Virus record (IMG/VR): IMGVR_UViG_3300031419_000012
Length of the DNA: 64,000 bases
DNA from: a virus
Reading direction: 5' to 3' (one strand)
Shown: positions 1-25,400 of the stretch, one piece after another
Numbering within the stretch: the first letter of the stretch is position 1
Layout: each line of letters starts with the position of its first letter
Position numbers and translations under genes: made by a program
Notes under the pieces: generated by a model
What the model was told of the DNA's origin: nothing
Database searches by the model: none
The model's input: only the letters and a program-made list of their open reading frames with translations

Positions 1-374
1 GCTTCACGCTTGATGCGCTTAATGGCGCGCTGTACGTCTACGTCCAGCAGCAGCTGCGGCAGGCCGCACTGCTTGCACAGCATGTTCATCATGGCGTAGT
101 GCTTTTCGATGGTGCTCGATGCGAGCCCGCTTTCCGACATAGAAAGAAAGTAAATGCGGGCCAGCTCCGGATCGATTGGCAGATACGTCAGGCCGCGCGC
201 GTTACACCACTTCGCCCAGCGGCGGATCACCGAAAGCAGGTCGCGGAAAGTGTTCTCTGAATACGCGCCTTTATCGGCAATAAAGCGGCGCAGGTTATTA
301 GCAACGTCCTGTGGCGTTAATGTGGTTAATTCCGCCGGAATAACGCTGCTTTTAATTTCCGCTAAATGTTTCAT
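1..374 (-). CDS. cre: Cre/Dre-family tyrosine recombinase, N-terminal part (runs off window edge)
   Basis: Manual translation from ATG 374 (RBS GAGGG): MKHLAEIKSSVIPAELTTLTPQDVANNLRRFIADKGAYSENTFRDLLSVIRRWAKWCNARGLTYLPIDPELARIYF...GLASSTIEKHYAMMNML. This aligns with recalled Cre (AFSEHTWKMLLSVCRSWAAWC...GLAVKTIQQHLGQLNML). Position next to c1 as in P1. Confidence 0.9.
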   Translation of the reverse strand, partial: MKHLAEIKSSVIPAELTTLTPQDVANNLRRFIADKGAYSENTFRDLLSVIRRWAKWCNARGLTYLPIDPELARIYFLSMSESGLASSTIEKHYAMMNMLCKQCGLPQLLLDVDVQRAIKRIKRE

Positions 375-575
375 CTATATATTTCCCTCAAAAACAGCAT
401 GACGTCGCTACGCAAAATCTATCAAAACAGCAGGGGGGTCGCACGCCAGATTTCACGTAGCGACGCCTGGCGATGGCGCGCTGCCGAAAAGCACATAATC
501 TGTACAATCAGATAAAATTTGTACAATCAGATCATCTGATCATCGAACTACTGATCAAGCATACATGAAAGCTAT

Positions 576-7609: not shown

Positions 7610-8008
7610 TCAGCGATAGCTTTTCAAGAGGTGGCTGACCGTATTCGACCAGTTAGTTACGGTGTCACGGGCTAAGCGGTGCACAACCTGGCTGTAAATA
7701 TTAACCGGTAACGGTTCCCCGGCTTCATCCTCAAACACTAACCCTTCCGTCGTTCCTGCTTTACTCATATTCACGCTGTAATCAAACTTGCCTGTTGCCC
7801 CATACATGCCTACCTGCTGCTGAGCCTGCCATGTGAAGCGCACGCCACAACCTTTCCTGAGCTCAAACACAACGGTTCCTTCCACCAGCATGGCTGACTG
7901 CTTCTCACCTGTAGGCAATGACTTATTGCGGCACGACACCGATGTGACCTTGCAGTGATCTGCGCGCCAGCCCAGTAATTCCAGTCCTTTGAGCTTTACC
8001 GTTTCCAT
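7610..8008 (-). CDS. Hypothetical phage protein
   Basis: 132 aa ORF translationally coupled to the upstream gene; no recognised motif. Confidence 0.65.
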   Translation of the reverse strand: METVKLKGLELLGWRADHCKVTSVSCRNKSLPTGEKQSAMLVEGTVVFELRKGCGVRFTWQAQQQVGMYGATGKFDYSVNMSKAGTTEGLVFEDEAGEPLPVNIYSQVVHRLARDTVTNWSNTVSHLLKSYR

Positions 8009-8268
8009 TAAATCAGTCTCCAGTCGCTTGCCAGCAGGTCAGCGGTTACGGGTGTCCAGTCAGCCGTAGTCAGCTGCTCGGTATTAGTCAGTACAAACTG
8101 CGGCATACGCGTGACGGATGCCTGCGGATCGTGGTCAAAAAATCGCGCCGGCACGCCGTACATATCGGTGCCGTTCAGTGGGTGGCGTGTGGTGCCTCTG
8201 TTAAGGCGCAGATGCATACTCTCCCCATGCTTTACGCGCCACTTTAGCGCCGTCAGAGAGCCACACAT
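8008..8268 (-). CDS. Small protein with DUF2829/Tad2-like C-terminal motif
   Basis: Ends WTPVTADLLASDWRLI (W-x-P-x3-D-L-L-A-x-D-W). Start uncertain (8268 or 8217). Confidence 0.55.
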   Translation of the reverse strand: MCGSLTALKWRVKHGESMHLRLNRGTTRHPLNGTDMYGVPARFFDHDPQASVTRMPQFVLTNTEQLTTADWTPVTADLLASDWRLI

Positions 8269-8584
8269 GCGCCACGGCCATAGGTGCGCCCTCTTCTCTG
8301 AACCTCAGCATGCCTTCATCAATCAGCTGCTCGCTGCGCAGGATCAAATCGTTGAGTTTGAGCATGGCCAGACAGGTAGCGTGATTAAGCGACTCCCCGC
8401 GGGCGGTCATCGTCAGTGCGCCTTTGCTTACCGTGGCGGACCAGTCTGCAGTCATCTGTGACTGCTCCGTGACGACAAAGCCCAGGTACTCGAGAACGTT
8501 CAGCAGCGCCATGTAGTCGCCGGTATAGTTACCCTTTGCACCGGCAATCATGGCAATCGTCTCGTTTATTTGTTGATCGTTCAT
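8201..8584 (-). CDS. Hypothetical phage protein, possibly phage ABA-sandwich fold
   Basis: 127 aa in operon; WSATVS...ARGESLNHATCLAMLK pattern recalls ABA-sandwich domains (weak). Confidence 0.6.
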   Translation of the reverse strand: MNDQQINETIAMIAGAKGNYTGDYMALLNVLEYLGFVVTEQSQMTADWSATVSKGALTMTARGESLNHATCLAMLKLNDLILRSEQLIDEGMLRFREEGAPMAVAHVWLSDGAKVARKAWGEYASAP

Positions 8585-8589
8585 CGCTA

Positions 8590-8841
8590 TCAGTAACCCC
8601 GCTTTGTTTTGCGCTGGTGGGCGCTCTTTTTACGCTTCCGTATTGCCTGCCGTTTCCGTTCGCGCTGCTGCTGCGCTTCTTCTACGCTGGTGGCCAGCCG
8701 GTGTATTCCTTCCTCAACGGTCAGCTGCGGGCGCTCCGGCAGCTGCAGCGACCTGGCATGCAGCACGGGAACGGTTGGCGGCCGGCGTGCCAGCCAGGTG
8801 AGACTTCCCATTAATGCGCCCATCAGTGCGATCTTTTTCAT
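8590..8841 (-). CDS. Hypothetical protein with hydrophobic N-terminus and basic tail
   Basis: 83 aa, RBS AGAGAGAG, first gene after the RNA array. Confidence 0.55.
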   Translation of the reverse strand: MKKIALMGALMGSLTWLARRPPTVPVLHARSLQLPERPQLTVEEGIHRLATSVEEAQQQRERKRQAIRKRKKSAHQRKTKRGY

Positions 8842-8858
8842 GCTCTCTCTCTGTCGTG

Positions 8859-8949
8859 CAGGCGTGCAGAATCCCCGGCGATTGCCGGTGATTAAAATTC
8901 ACCTGATTAATTCCGGCGCCGGCGGCGCACGGGGATGGTATGACGCCTG
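8859..8949 (-). ncRNA. Cloverleaf-like structure with a Lys(UUU)-like stem-loop
   Basis: Outer stems CAGGCGT/ACGCCTG and ATCCCC/GGGGAT enclose three hairpins, one being GGTGA-ATTTTAA-TCACC (5 bp stem, 7-nt loop). Confidence 0.4.
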
Positions 8950-8981
8950 TCCCGGCGGCTGGCCGGGTGGCTATGTGGATA

Positions 8982-9083
8982 TTGTGCTGACCGGATTTGA
9001 ACCGGCGACCTCACGCTTGTCCCTTTCACCGCCCTCCGGGCTGAATAAAAGAGCGAACGCTGCTGCCACTGAGCTACAACACA
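8982..9083 (-). ncRNA. tRNA-like RNA with long hairpin inserted in the anticodon loop
   Basis: Acceptor TGTGTTG/CAGCACA, D-region TAGCTCAGTGGCAGCAGCG, variable loop AGGTC, T-arm GCCGG-TTCAAAT-CCGGT. The anticodon region is ~30 nt too long and contains CTTTTA; no CCA encoded. Confidence 0.8.
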
Positions 9084-9341
9084 ACGATAAAAGCCCGTCT
9101 GCCGGCGCTCTTACCTGTTGGGCTGTGTCAGCGAGCCACCAGCTGATCGATAAGCCAGCGGTGACCGGCAAACAGTCCGGCATTCAGCAGCAGGTGAAAC
9201 ATTACAAACTGCATCGCTCTGACTGTTTTGGTATACATGCTGGTGTCCATACTGCTTAAATCCTGATTGACTGACTGAATTGCTTAAATCATGCCTGAAT
9301 TTTCATGTCAGCGCTCATGCCTGCAAATCTGCTTTGCGTTA

Positions 9342-9482
9342 GTGGTGGCCGGTGCCATACCCGGCAAGTAACCTCTCAAGCGACTGGTCAACTCGGTTAC
9401 TGGCGGCTTAAACCCCTATGCGGTGCGATTGATGAAGCGGGGGCCAGTCTTGCGATCGCAGCAGCAACTGCGAATGCACCAC
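9342..9482 (-). ncRNA. c4-like RNA (acceptor-like stem plus terminal T-like arm)
   Basis: GTGGTG/CACCAC closing stem with GCCGG-8nt-CCGGC stacked on it, internal hairpins, and a 5' leader CAGTACTCTTTCCGTTGTG of the kind recalled from c4-type elements. Confidence 0.55.
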
Positions 9483-9676
9483 AACGGAAAGAGTACTGAG
9501 CGGCTAATACGCTTTCCTGTTGGGTTGGTAATACTATTTGCGGCGCTTTTTCTTCACGTCTCGGCGACAGGCTTTAATAACCGTTTCAAAGCCATAAATC
9601 ACCACCAGCGTGTAAATGATAGTGAGAGCCGGGTGTTCTGCGGCAAACGCTAAAATCGGCATATCGTGTCCTGTCA

Positions 9677-9825
9677 GTGAGGGAGCTGTCTCTTCCAGCT
9701 GTCAGAACTAATCGCCCAGGCGTTCAACCTTAGATGGCAGCAATTCTCTGCTGGCTGGATGACATTACGTGTAAACCGGATAACCAATCAGACCAAAGGC
9801 ATAAAAGTCCTAGCTCCGCACTCAC
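9677..9825 (-). ncRNA. Structured RNA with acceptor-like stem plus T-like arm
   Basis: GTGAGTG/CCCTCAC (6 of 7 paired) with AGCTG-GAAGAGA-CAGCT adjacent; contains CTTTTA. Confidence 0.4.
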
Positions 9826-9897
9826 ATATCCCAAGTGACCCACTTCCGGCCACCAGCAGGGTGCGCTGGCTCCAATGCAACTGGCCTGTACAGATAC

Positions 9898-9981
9898 TGG
9901 CAGTAACGGCTGGATTTGAACCAGCGACCTTCCGTACTCCTGAGTAAAAGCCGGACGCTCGTGCCACTGAGCTACGTCACC
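9898..9981 (-). tRNA. Atypical tRNA-Lys(UUU)-like RNA with insertion 3' of the anticodon
   Basis: Acceptor GGTGACG/CGTTACT plus GCCA, D-arm GCTC-AGTGGCAC-GAGC, T-arm GCTGG-TTCAAAT-CCAGC. Anticodon region reads TCCGG-CTTTTA-CTCAGGAGT-ACGGA; 84 nt. Confidence 0.8.
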
Positions 9982-10014
9982 ATTAACGGGTTGCTGTGAT
10001 CGGTTTCCGTTAGC

Positions 10015-10151
10015 GCGATTGTTCAATGAGGCGGGAGTTGAACCCGCTTTGCCTTCGCAGCCCATCGCTGACCGCCTGCGTCAATTCGCCGGCAAGGCTT
10101 TCGCCCCGTGGACTCAGATCCACAACTCCTACGGTGTGTTAAAGCAATCAC
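10015..10151 (-). ncRNA. Enlarged tRNA-like RNA with canonical T-arm
   Basis: Closing stem GTGATTG/CAATCGC, T-arm GCGGG-TTCAACT-CCCGC (10031-10047), several internal hairpins. Confidence 0.55.
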
Positions 10152-10342
10152 CACAACGGCTGAGAGCACTGAAAATCTGCCCGGATAACGGCGTCTTTGC
10201 CAGTCGCCGCCAGTGCTCTCACCGTTGTGTGCTGGTCTTTCCCAGCTGCCACGAACTTTTTTAAGGTCTGCCGCTGACCTTGCCCTGCCACCAGCCAAAA
10301 TAGCCGGTAAGCAGCGCGCCGCCTGGTGTTGACGTGTAGTGC

Positions 10343-10446
10343 ATGGGGGGCTGGTGCCTCCAGCTGTCCGATACGGAACCTACGGACGGGTATACCGTAC
10401 AGGAAATATTATTCCGCCCCGCGTGCGCATAGCCGCATTCCCCCAT
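10343..10446 (-). ncRNA. c4-like RNA
   Basis: ATGGGG/CCCCAT closing stem with GCTGG-AGGCA-CCAGC adjacent; begins GGGGAATGCGGCTATGCGCACGCGG, resembling the recalled c4 antisense RNA motif. Confidence 0.6.
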
Positions 10447-10692
10447 TTGTGAGCGTGCTGTCAGAGGCAGTTACACCCGTCGCCAGGCAGCAAGAGGATG
10501 CCAGCACGCTCACAAATGGCGATCCCTTACGAGGATCAGGCGGGAACATATTTAAGCCTCACGGGGCGTTCTATGCGCGGGGTAGTCCATCGACCGCGTT
10601 CACTGCCGTGACAGGAGGGGCTACATGCCGTTCACCCTACTCATAACACGCCCGGAAAATCTGGAGACTACCGGGAGCGGCCCGTTACGAAC

Positions 10693-10756
10693 TGGTGCAG
10701 GTTGGCGGAATTGAACCGCCGACAGTGGAACACTCGACCGACTGAGCTAAACCTGC
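10693..10756 (-). ncRNA. tRNA-like RNA lacking the anticodon arm
   Basis: Perfect acceptor GCAGGTT/AACCTGC plus ACCA, D-arm GCTC-AGTCGGTC-GAGT, T-arm GGCGG-TTCAATT-CCGCC. Only 11 nt lie between D- and T-arm (about 23 expected); 64 nt. Confidence 0.85.
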
Positions 10757-10938
10757 TGAAATTGTGCCGGTGCATAACCCGGCGCGGACACTTAAGCATC
10801 TGGTCAACCTGTCCGCTTGCGTACACAACAGGGAGAAGGAACTAAACCCTGCCAGATTTGCACTGCGTCTGCCTCGCTGCTGAATCCTCTCTCCGATTCA
10901 GCCGTGAGCACACATCATGCACTCACGGGTAAACCTGA

Positions 10939-10962
10939 AAAAAAGCCCGAAAACTATCGGGC
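10939..10962 (-). terminator. Intrinsic terminator in the leader of the RNA array
   Basis: GCCCGA-TAGTTT-TCGGGC followed by a T7 run on the minus strand. Confidence 0.65.
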
Positions 10963-11108
10963 ATAAATGACTACCTACAGCGCAAAACTCACTCGCAAAT
11001 GAGCTTTGCGTTGTAAAAAATTGCGGATTAAACAATAGGTTAATGAGTAACCCGCTAAATACCAATTTGGATACTTTTCAACGATTATGGTCGTTGCCAG
11101 CGGGTAGA

Positions 11109-11169
11109 AATGTACACAATGAGGAGATCTGAATCAATGAAAATCTAAGATATTTCTTAGATTTTCATT
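11109..11169 (-). promoter_or_regulatory. Sigma70 promoter with adjacent perfect palindromic operator
   Basis: TTGATT-17bp-TACATT with extended -10 TG; AATGAAAATCTAAGA-N4-TCTTAGATTTTCATT at 11136-11169 abuts the -35. Confidence 0.7.
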
Positions 11170-11199
11170 TTTAAAAGGTTGCCGGGTAATTGCGTCAGG

Positions 11200-12489
11200 T
11201 TAGCGACGTTTCAGGTTGCCGTTTTTGATAGGTTCAATATCACCGTTGGTTTTTGCCCAGTTGATGCACCAGCTATTAACTGCCATGCGGATCTCTTCTA
11301 CCGTGGCCTCGCTCAGCCCTTTAACCTTTACCAGTTCCGGCGGTAGCTCACCACCCACCGCTGCCACCGTTTCATACCCGGCCTTAATCAGCGCGTTAAG
11401 CGCACGCGCCGGAATAACCAGCTCAGAGACCGGCGCAGCCTTGCCGTCAATTATGCGCTGATGGAGACGCGGGAAGTCCAGCGCCAGGCGGGTCATGATG
11501 CGTTCATGCAGTTCATCGTTGATGGCCGTGTCCCACATAGGGAGTAAATCAGGCAGGATTCGGAATACCGGATTACCCCATACACCCGGCACGACGTCCA
11601 TTGCCAGCATCATTGCGGTGCGGATCTGATAGTGAAAGTTTGCCGTCTCAATGGACACGTCACGCATGCCGTGAAACACGCTAAGACCGAAGTGGTAATT
11701 GTAGATATAGCAGCCCACGTCGCCGCTGCCGTCCGGCAATGGCAGAAGGAATTGCGCCACATCTTCCTGCCCGTCGTGAAACTCCACGCGCTCTTTGAGA
11801 TTGTTATGCAGGGCAGTCAGTTTAATCAGCTCATTAGCCGTCTCACCGCGCAGGCGGCGCTCTTTACCAACCTCTTTATCTGCAATGTTCAGCTTCTGCT
11901 GCAGCTCAAGTTTCAGCGCGCTCTGTTTTTTACGGTCGGCGCGTAGCTGTGAAATGGTTTTATCGCGCTCCTGCAGATCCAGCGCCAGGCGCTCAGGATT
12001 TTTGCGGCGGTACTGTGCAAACTCATTATTCAGAGTGGTCAGCGCCAGCTGTGCAGTAACCAGCGCGCCTGATGCGCGTTCGTGAGCGTTTTCAGCGTTA
12101 ATAGCGCGGCTGTCAGCCTCAGCAGCGTGCATATTGGCCTGCTGAATAGCTTCGTCGGCGGCGTTCTGCGCATCAAGGCGGATCTGCGTTATCTCCAGGC
12201 TCAGCGCTGAATGGCTGTCCAGCTGCTGCTGTACATGCTCCAGTGCGTCTGCCAGCACGTTATAGGTGTCAGCCTCATGATTAAGGCGCTGCCCGATATC
12301 AATCTGCACCTGCTCCAGCGCGGCCAGGCAGTTATCCAGCAGGCGGTTTTCAAGATCGTCAAGTTTCAGGCGCTTGCGGATAGAGGCCAGCTGGCCGTAA
12401 GCCGCTACAAACGTCTGGTGAAGGACTTCATCGTCAACGGGGCATTCAGGGAGTTGCTGCAGCTTCTGGAGAAGATTTTGAGATGACAT
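11200..12489 (-). CDS. Coiled-coil protein with C-terminal RNAP-alpha-CTD-like HhH domain (P1 PmgS-like, tentative)
   Basis: Long heptad-rich N-terminal half; C-terminal ELVIPARALNALIKAGYETVAAV...LVKVKGLSEATVEEI matches the alpha-CTD pattern. Confidence 0.7.
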   Translation of the reverse strand: MSSQNLLQKLQQLPECPVDDEVLHQTFVAAYGQLASIRKRLKLDDLENRLLDNCLAALEQVQIDIGQRLNHEADTYNVLADALEHVQQQLDSHSALSLEITQIRLDAQNAADEAIQQANMHAAEADSRAINAENAHERASGALVTAQLALTTLNNEFAQYRRKNPERLALDLQERDKTISQLRADRKKQSALKLELQQKLNIADKEVGKERRLRGETANELIKLTALHNNLKERVEFHDGQEDVAQFLLPLPDGSGDVGCYIYNYHFGLSVFHGMRDVSIETANFHYQIRTAMMLAMDVVPGVWGNPVFRILPDLLPMWDTAINDELHERIMTRLALDFPRLHQRIIDGKAAPVSELVIPARALNALIKAGYETVAAVGGELPPELVKVKGLSEATVEEIRMAVNSWCINWAKTNGDIEPIKNGNLKRR

Positions 12490-25141: not shown

Positions 25142-25400
25142 TTAAAGAAGCGTCACTACAGGAGGTTCCAATCTCCGGGTGGTGACGTTGACAGGGTTGG
25201 AACTACCGGCGCACAAGAAAACCGGCCTACCCGAAGGTAGCCCCACCAACGCCACCATAGATACGCCCGGAATAATCCGGACGTGGTAGCGCCGAAGGCA
25301 CTATGTGCCAGCTCTCATGCTTTTTCAGGGTTCCAATCCCGACCGCTGTTTTGCAGCGGCGCGCACACTATATCCGCCGCGCTGATAAATTCAATATGTC
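25142..25400 (-). promoter_or_regulatory. c4/P4-CI-type antisense attenuator leader with Ash/Icd-like leader peptide
   Basis: GATTGGAACC twice (25329-25338, 25164-25173) with a complementary GTTCCAACCC between (25194-25203). Encodes MVALVGLPSGRPVFLCAGSSNPVNVTT (25142-25258), an Ash-family-like motif. Confidence 0.65.

Follow-up and report, generated by a model that had tools for sequence, protein, structure and literature searches.

Can a transfer RNA (tRNA) without an anticodon arm be anything other than a dead gene? The question is raised by t1, a 64-nucleotide (nt) unit at positions 10693-10756 of a 64,000-nt stretch of viral DNA (IMG/VR record IMGVR_UViG_3300031419_000012; the whole stretch is referred to here as the window). 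The window is a P1/D6-like phage-plasmid whose relatives are Pantoea plasmids of about 90 kb and IMG/VR contigs. Because its shape is kept in related plasmids, t1 is probably no dead gene but a nondecoding RNA module shaped like a tRNA.

The unit is encoded on the minus strand, with the 5' end of the RNA at 10756 and the 3' end at 10693. It has the hallmarks of a tRNA: a 7-bp acceptor stem, a D-arm with A14 and G18G19, and a T-arm with a UUCRANY loop. U8 and A9 sit between the 5' strand of the acceptor stem and the D-arm. What is absent is the 5-bp anticodon stem and the 7-nt loop with its anticodon, which were found neither in the alignment to the Rfam tRNA model (RF00005) nor by ARAGORN, which made no tRNA call for t1, nor in the RNAalifold consensus. 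RF00005 matched t1 with 43.6 bits (gathering score, 29; E = 2.3e-7; 2.6 kb searched with relaxed filters), and in that alignment 6 nt stand against the 17-nt anticodon arm of the model (15 collapsed consensus positions and the closing pair). The match requires the relaxed filters, as a run over the 64 kb in gathering mode filtered t1 out. The minimum free energy of t1 was -22.6 kcal/mol (z = -3.17), and none of 200 shuffled sequences folded equally well. The RNAalifold consensus of the eight variants known from related loci consisted of the acceptor stem, the D-arm, and the T-arm, with the linker unpaired. In the minimum free energy structure of the window's own variant, the D-stem gives way to pairing between the linker and part of the D-loop (CAGU.GG/CC.ACUG); this alternative is slightly favored for that variant but is not the consensus across variants. 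On these structural models, decoding by t1 is excluded.

An initial reading that had only the letters of the window to go on (the sequence-only reading) described a 64-nt tRNA that lacks its anticodon arm, cannot decode, joins its D- and T-arms with 11 nt, and ends in an encoded CCA. Sequence, RF00005 alignment, and fold agree with that description, with 6 nt at the site of the arm, ARAGORN silent, and the linker unpaired. The same reading called the arms perfect, which is accurate for the fully paired acceptor stem and T-arm and slightly overstated for the D-arm because one of its four pairs is a wobble (G10.U25, the other three being Watson-Crick pairs) and position 21 is a C, versus A in most relatives.

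Other identities for t1 did not hold up. No Rfam family other than RF00005 scored for t1 or for the armless units found elsewhere, as described below. An Rfam match to "Plastid-ycf2" on the opposite strand was a tRNA look-alike artifact. The models for the C4 antisense RNA (RF01695) and STnc100 (RF02076) had no match within 8700-11300 at E values up to 10. Bacterial Y RNA-like YrlA (RF02553) was rejected because its model did not match at t1 and its topology is opposite: the 5' and 3' ends of YrlA make the Ro-binding stem, whereas those of t1 make the acceptor stem.

The origin of t1 can be traced in the tRNA cluster of related phages. The gene order in phage D6 is darB-ulx-pmgR-pmgS-[tRNA-Asn(GUU), tRNA-Thr(UGU), Ser/Sec-like tRNA, STnc100-like small RNA (sRNA)]-tciA-tciB-tRNA(CAT)-lpa-pacA, and the tRNAs of this cluster are canonical. 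The pmgS-like gene that adjoins t1 upstream fixes the synteny with D6 and P1; the window also contains a darB-like open reading frame (ORF) of 2313 amino acids and, at 25175-25262, a bona fide C4 antisense RNA recognized by Rfam. Alignment of t1 with D6 tRNA-Thr(UGU) gave 52 identities in 64 positions (81%), interrupted by one gap of 12 nt that covers the anticodon stem-loop. The two RNAs have in common their neighborhood (pmgS to lpa), orientation, acceptor stem, D-arm, variable loop, T-arm, and ACCA end. They differ in the 17-nt anticodon stem-loop of the D6/P1 tRNA, which is replaced in t1 by about 5 nt. Between the D-stem and the variable loop, t1 retains G26, then five nucleotides, then position 44, where a C or T can pair with G26. 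The alignment thus indicates that t1 derives from a P1/D6-family tRNA-Thr(UGU) by clean excision of the anticodon arm.

The sequence-only reading had named two findings that would speak against an armless tRNA, an assembly error and relatives with a full arm. Neither was found. The whole 2.3-kb stretch around t1 is present with 0 differences on one contig, at a depth of 78, in an isolate run (X1) that is a possible source of this DNA, and contigs from another organism (X16/X17) span 10629-10804 with 2 differences. Together with about 20 armless related loci, the X1 copy rules out an assembly error or a strain-specific deletion; t1 is neither an assembly artifact nor specific to one strain. Two scans with trailer patterns covered viral, genome, and metagenome collections and pulled about 56 stretches, of which about 31 were related plasmid/phage loci with no full arm at this slot and the others chance matches. 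Apart from these chance matches they returned the same two alleles that fill the t1 slot in about 45 related loci, called here type A and type B, and no full-arm tRNA. No complete tRNA occupied the slot of any locus, and therefore the expectation that relatives might have a full arm was not borne out. The cultured-phage collection contained no near DNA matches.

Type A, the 64-mer, was found in about 20 loci as eight sequence variants, all of the same armless length and without indels (mean column identity, 96%). Acceptor pair 6:67 changed from T-A to C-G in two variants, a compensatory change. The remaining substitutions fall in the variable positions of the D-loop, in the linker, at R57, and at position 60; linker position 32 is C or T and lies opposite the invariant G26.

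Type B, which occupies the same slot, is 73 nt long and was found as about 16 sequence variants in about 24 loci. In the Rfam tRNA model it scores 40.4 bits, with a class II-like D-loop and 14 unstructured nucleotides in place of the arm, and its T-stem shows a compensatory change from C-G to T-A in locus L014. ARAGORN proposed that type B is a decoding tRNA without a D-arm ("Phe GAA at position 28"). This reading was rejected, as position 33 is A and not U, the proposed stem excludes a D-arm, and the Rfam alignment favors a D-arm plus an unstructured 14-mer. The third tRNA of D6 (L028, 9033-9119, plus strand; anticodon UGA) scored best with the tRNA-Sec model at 43 bits, which is below threshold, and according to the note in its record its tRNAscan assignment failed. 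The class II-like type B allele may correspond to this tRNA of canonical length.

Types A and B have in common only G1-C72, C2-G71, A3-U70, A73, and CCA. The type that a locus carries is also independent of which hypervariable core is present in the sRNA-like unit downstream: one core is common to L001 (type A) and L008 (type B), another to L004 (A) and L003 (B), and a third to L019 (A) and L021 (B). Because the alleles share little else and assort independently, shape and acceptor end appear to matter, rather than internal sequence, and the two types appear to behave as interchangeable modules.

The common acceptor end might suggest that t1 is aminoacylated, charged by way of acceptor stem identity and used off the ribosome as an aminoacyl donor or sensor ligand. 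G1-C72 and C2-G71 are determinants for threonyl-tRNA synthetase (ThrRS), and both pairs, A73, and CCA are conserved in the two alleles. Some synthetases can charge minihelices and tRNAs without anticodons, and nonribosomal users of aminoacyl-tRNA exist. However, ThrRS relies strongly on anticodon bases G35 and U36, four loci end in ATCA, and the acceptor end common to both alleles may be no more than a trace of recombination boundaries. The annotation of pEuc3, a related plasmid of Pantoea eucalypti LMG 24197, lists no aminoacyl-tRNA-dependent transferase and no other tRNA-related or partner enzyme. We therefore regard a charged, nondecoding t1 as very improbable. Charging is one of several functions that the sequence-only reading had listed; the roles in EF-Tu binding, as a target of acceptor-end toxins, and in the sensing of uncharged tRNA are, like it, speculation.

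IMG/VR was scanned with a motif that requires a canonical D-arm followed within 8 to 17 nt by GGTTCRANTCC, with acceptor pairing scored afterwards. This yielded at least 119 loci, of which at least 96 have 6 or more of the 7 acceptor pairs; 94 of those also have 4 or more of the 5 T-stem pairs, and their lengths are 57 to 68 nt. The motif recovered the t1 homologues L010 and L194 (the G001 copy), and t1 itself has the features that define the armless units, namely, a D-arm, a T-arm 8 to 17 nt further on, a 7-bp acceptor stem, and a location in phage DNA. Among the 96 matches listed, ARAGORN called none, 22 have ordinary tRNAs within 1 kb, 74 are solitary, and 88 have a same-strand ORF downstream (median gap, about 150 nt); most are flanked on both sides by ORFs of one orientation. 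At least 11 armless units lie 16 to 43 nt upstream of terS-terL, and another is located 12 nt before an Sf6-type terS. Rfam returned only tRNA matches for the armless units of other phages (41 to 52 bits). In an alignment of fourteen armless units, 97% of the cells were paired and double changes occurred at 10 of 16 pairs, a result equaled by 0 of 500 shuffles. The same pattern matched twice in 401 bacterial genomes, one of the matches being a relative of this plasmid; the viral count is a lower bound, and no enrichment can be computed from these numbers. We found no description of anticodon-armless phage tRNA mimics in the literature and no dedicated Rfam family. By this sequence survey, armless tRNA mimics are a widespread and uncatalogued feature of phage genomes, and t1 is thus one member of a class rather than a singular oddity.

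Two further observations concern individual phages of the survey. Units of 55 to 63 nt upstream of terS (L084, L110, L118, L139, L145 [406-463, plus strand], L154, L165, L186, L187, and L190) have linkers of 6 to 14 nt and acceptor stems that covary; one terS-upstream unit from IMG/VR had no match in the cultured-phage collection. In L137, a 125-nt tRNA match with a large insertion (135-259, plus strand) is immediately followed by an armless unit (303-359, plus strand), a pairing of "expanded" and "armless" forms like that in the window.

The surroundings of t1 are conserved and largely noncoding. Over about 2.2 kb, from pmgS to the small genes before lpa, there is no conserved ORF save two annotated mini-ORFs, and conservation is 75 to 97%. 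Every type A and type B locus has the leader (Table 1) in conserved form, and no more than 4 to 5 of its bases vary. Across 13 aligned loci the first 9 nt of the trailer are invariant and the first 16 vary at one base (G to A in L008), and the stem of the trailer hairpin covaries, being CCTGG/CCAGG in L014 and L019. Further downstream follow, in order after the trailer hairpin, a conserved block of about 130 nt, a hairpin (GATCC..GGATC), an 18-bp hairpin, and a structured sRNA-like unit. In the window itself, 10343-10650 had no Rfam match. The ends of the sRNA-like unit are conserved (GGGGGAATGCGG ... CAGCTGGAGGCACCAGCCCCCC), and its 5' part resembles, by BLAST, the STnc100-like RNA of D6. STnc100 is a prophage family of base-pairing sRNAs (bioRxiv 10.64898/2026.05.13.724894). 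The sequence of the unit suggests an sRNA of the antisense or immunity type that has a specificity region.

Table 1. Coordinates of t1, its parts, and neighboring features in the window
Feature	Coordinates	Strand	Description and basis
t1 (type A), 64-nt anticodon-armless tRNA-like unit	10693..10756	minus	Rfam, single-sequence fold, RNAalifold, alignment with D6 tRNA-Thr(UGU)
t1 acceptor stem	10756-10750 with 10703-10697	minus	GCAGGTT with AACCTGC; 7/7 Watson-Crick pairs
t1 D-arm	10747-10732	minus	Stem GCTC/GAGT, loop AGTCGGTC
t1 linker, 11 nt	10731-10721	minus	GTTCCACTGTC; takes the place of the 17-nt anticodon arm and variable loop
t1 T-arm	10720-10704	minus	GGCGG/TTCAATT/CCGCC; 5/5 Watson-Crick pairs, canonical UUCRANY loop
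t1 discriminator A and encoded CCA	10696-10693	minus	Read from the sequence
t1 5' leader	10757..10784	minus	Hairpin GCCGG-loop-CCGGC (10784-10767), short variable A/T-rich tract, TTCA before G1 (A at -1)
t1 3' trailer	10651..10692	minus	First 9 nt after CCA, GTTCGTAAC; first 16 nt, GTTCGTAACGGGCCGC; hairpin CCCGG/CCGGG (10675-10651) with variable loop
Conserved noncoding RNAs downstream of t1	10343..10650	minus	87-97% identity across plasmids, no conserved ORF
18-bp perfect hairpin	10519-10443	minus	Covaries T-A/C-G across plasmids
Structured sRNA-like unit, about 100 nt	about 10446-10343	minus	Acceptor-like closing stem, hypervariable core
t2, 84-nt tRNA-Asn-derived unit	9898..9981	minus	Rfam, 52 bits with a 9-nt insert; 56/76 identity to D6 tRNA-Asn
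t3, about 105-nt tRNA-like unit	8979..9083	minus	Rfam, 38.7 bits
Intrinsic-terminator-like hairpin with U-run	10937..10962	minus	Terminator scan; weak Rfam matches to sRNA terminators
pmgS-like head-morphogenesis gene, upstream of t1	11200..12489	minus	tblastn to PmgS of D6, P1, and P7; Pfam RNA_pol_A_CTD tail

As the sequence-only reading had proposed, t1 comes first in an array of tRNA-like units that all point the same way. Its second unit, t2, ends in G73 and CCA and has an enlarged, noncanonical anticodon region, a 17-nt "anticodon loop" with a mini-hairpin. The "anticodon" is UUU here and UUA in relatives, in which ARAGORN reports a "tRNA-Stop." The outer stem changes from U-A to C-G in L025, and in many relatives the t2 slot is occupied by tciA-tciB or by nothing. 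Distant matches in the cultured-phage collection came only from three jumbo-phage records, in which tRNA-Asn weakly matched t2. The third unit, t3, has a three-part helix of about 35 nt where the anticodon arm would be and no encoded CCA. Every related plasmid has it, and the copies form two divergent groups. Its acceptor stem (TGTGTTG/CAGCACA) is invariant, and compensatory changes distinguish the groups in the outer stem (TCGC/GCGA versus CCGT/ACGG) and the middle stem (CTTT/AAAG versus CCAT/ATGG) of the helix. Because of the type B allele, the independent assortment of types A and B, the conserved leader and trailer, and the covariation in t3, the array appears, on sequence comparison, to be a set of maintained nondecoding tRNA-shaped RNAs and not rubble.

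Three other features of this region were recorded. A block at 10015-10160 on the minus strand is 88 to 94% conserved and ends in a T-arm-like hairpin (GCGGG-TTCAACT-CCCGC) with no convincing acceptor partner; it has a weak Rfam match (15 bits) to a viral tRNA-like element. The terminator-like hairpin closes a short sRNA-like region after pmgS. The layout of that region (10937-11135), with a minus-strand sRNA-like unit ending in the terminator at 10962-10937 and a 29-codon ORF on the opposite strand, recalls an antisense pair. A DUF2829/Tad2-like gene at about 8220 (8008-8584, minus strand) lies in two overlapping frames as the result of a 2-nt deletion relative to the intact 192-amino-acid gene of the Pantoea sp. 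PSNIH1 plasmid pPSP-26e; the split may reflect a sequencing error, a frameshift, or decay to a pseudogene.

What might a maintained armless tRNA do? The sequence-only reading had suggested, among other functions, that the first unit of the array acts as a processing signal. Of the functions it listed, this one appears to fit best with the operon-like noncoding context, the conserved leader and nearly invariant trailer, and the interchangeable alleles that have only shape and acceptor end in common. Bacterial RNase P requires the acceptor/T-arm stack, the elbow, and RCCA and has no need of the anticodon arm, whereas ribosomes and most synthetases need the arm, the part lost in t1. All three of the RNase P determinants (stack, D/T elbow, and RCCA) are kept in t1. 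Nondecoding cleavage signals of this general kind, the t-elements, are known from plant mitochondria (Forner et al. 2007, PMC1920247), and RNase E of Escherichia coli cleaves 1 to 3 nt past an encoded CCA (PMC2190699).

Because the retained acceptor stem and elbow are what RNase P, 3'-end nucleases, and the CCA enzyme recognize, we propose tentatively, with confidence somewhat short of even, that t1 is a t-element-like module cut from a noncoding RNA operon by host tRNA-processing enzymes. In this model, a noncoding RNA operon of about 2 kb between pmgS and the lpa/terminase genes would be transcribed with t1 as its first unit. A cut by RNase P at G1 (10756) would release the 5' end of t1, and the 3' cut, immediately past ACCA (10693), would be made by RNase E or exonucleases. 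Excision of t1 would set the 5' end of the conserved downstream RNAs, which include the hairpins and the STnc100/C4-like sRNA, and a stable by-product of 61 to 64 nt would remain. The co-oriented conserved noncoding units around t1, with no conserved ORF, would be compatible with such an operon, whereas the promoter and terminator findings given below speak against it.

Several points weigh against this proposal. A complete tRNA would be an equally good processing signal, and thus the model explains why the tRNA body was kept but not why the arm was lost. No sigma-70-type promoter was found in 8700-11300, and 180 nt upstream of t1 there is a hairpin that resembles a terminator; a comparison by eye with the -22 boxes of P1 late promoters gave no clear verdict for or against such a promoter. 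Covariation in type A is thin, with one compensatory pair and 22 of 500 shuffles as good, and the covariation among the fourteen units of other phages may have arisen in part from independent derivation from different tRNAs. Some metagenomic variants have a T-stem mismatch or G19C, ATCA replaces ACCA in four loci, and the type B copy of Enterobacter looks degraded. Conservation of t1 is sometimes no better than that of its flanks; for example, the window and L001 are 86% identical in t1 versus 96% in the flanks.

Many of these points would be expected if t1 were a decaying tRNA pseudogene, one of the phage tRNAs that became dispensable after a host shift, which lost its arm recently and is now hitchhiking in a conserved region. 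The low diversity of type A with its single compensatory pair, the occasional disruptive variants and losses of the encoded CCA, the visibly degraded L025 copies of type B and t2, and the lack of consistently better conservation than in the flanks are all consistent with decay. However, the armless form is common to plasmids whose hairpin loop and sRNA core have diverged beyond alignment. The eight type A variants contain no indels, and their substitutions avoid stems and tertiary-contact bases. Two independent nondecoding alleles have been kept in one slot, t3 of the same array covaries strongly in its novel arm, and the same clean excision with intact 7-bp acceptor stems is found in at least 96 phage loci. 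Therefore, we consider decay unlikely as the explanation for t1.

The loss of the arm, which the processing proposal leaves aside, is addressed by the suggestion that the armless body serves as a decoy or sponge for tRNA-targeting defenses or toxins, one that cannot be cleaved and leaves translation undisturbed. Candidate targets are the AriB-type anticodon-arm nuclease of PARIS, toxSAS, MenT, and acetyltransferase toxins. The tRNAs cut by AriB are Lys(UUU), Thr(UGU), and Asn(GUU); the cut falls in the anticodon stem at C40|A41, the nuclease also contacts U16-U17 of the D-loop, and the authors of that work raised competition by viral tRNAs (bioRxiv 10.1101/2025.02.04.636281). The parent tRNAs of t1 (Thr) and t2 (Asn) are two of these three substrates. 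Because exactly the arm that AriB attacks has been lost or remodeled in t1 and t2, with the body and the D-loop kept (U16 is retained), both might be uncleavable decoys. The acceptor end common to types A and B and the presence nearby of the Tad2-like and darB/ulx antidefense genes are also consistent with this suggestion. However, no gene for DUF4435, which we take to be the Pfam family of AriB-type nucleases, was found in 31 genomes (19 of the host genus and 12 of related genera, one per species), and the D-loop of type B differs. Furthermore, many armless units of other phages are located directly upstream of terS within operons, positions that fit a role in cis better than a decoy acting in trans. 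A decoy function for t1 is accordingly, in our estimate, quite unlikely. The broader version, in which P1/D6-type phage-plasmids turned the tRNAs attacked by PARIS (Thr-UGU and Asn-GUU) into decoys or sponges that act in trans on immune effectors or acceptor-end toxins and the mimics, at least 96 in number, form a general class of RNA counterdefense, strikes us as distinctly improbable.

If expressed, t1 would be a "minimal tRNA body" of natural origin, on which RNase P, the CCA enzyme, and T-loop modification enzymes could act but which is barred from decoding. Comparative handles on t1 are available in its parent tRNA in D6/P1, in an interchangeable allele, and in two sister units with differently remodeled anticodon arms. 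Together with the similar units in other phages (at least 96), it points to an unannotated RNA class that tRNA finders skip and that Rfam files under "tRNA." Conceivable roles include punctuating phage operons, stabilizing transcripts, and blunting tRNA-targeting immunity, any of which would make these RNAs a new element of gene expression or of counterdefense. For annotation, the consequence is that armless units should be treated neither as tRNAs nor as junk.

As a principle, the tRNA-like element that acts in processing or mimicry is already known. In the mascRNA/MALAT1 3' module and in 3'ETS-leuZ, tRNA-processing enzymes define the ends of other functional RNAs, with the tRNA-shaped piece left as a by-product or serving for stability. 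mascRNA is eukaryotic and retains an anticodon arm, though a short one, and 3'ETS-leuZ lies behind a tRNA that decodes normally. Another related system is the C4 precursor of P1/P7 (RF01695), with which the same phage family matures a small regulatory RNA by way of host RNase P; Hartmann reportedly described this precursor as an RNase P substrate in 1995. C4 has no similarity to t1 in sequence or model, and it regulates as an antisense RNA; for t1, no target is evident. The t-elements of plant mitochondria are nondecoding tRNA-like folds with a GGTTCRANYCC T-arm inside longer transcripts, and they serve as cleavage signals for RNase P and RNase Z that leave a stable small RNA (PMC1920247). The t-elements are organellar and have experimentally mapped termini, whereas t1 is a phage element with a canonical D-arm and an encoded CCA.

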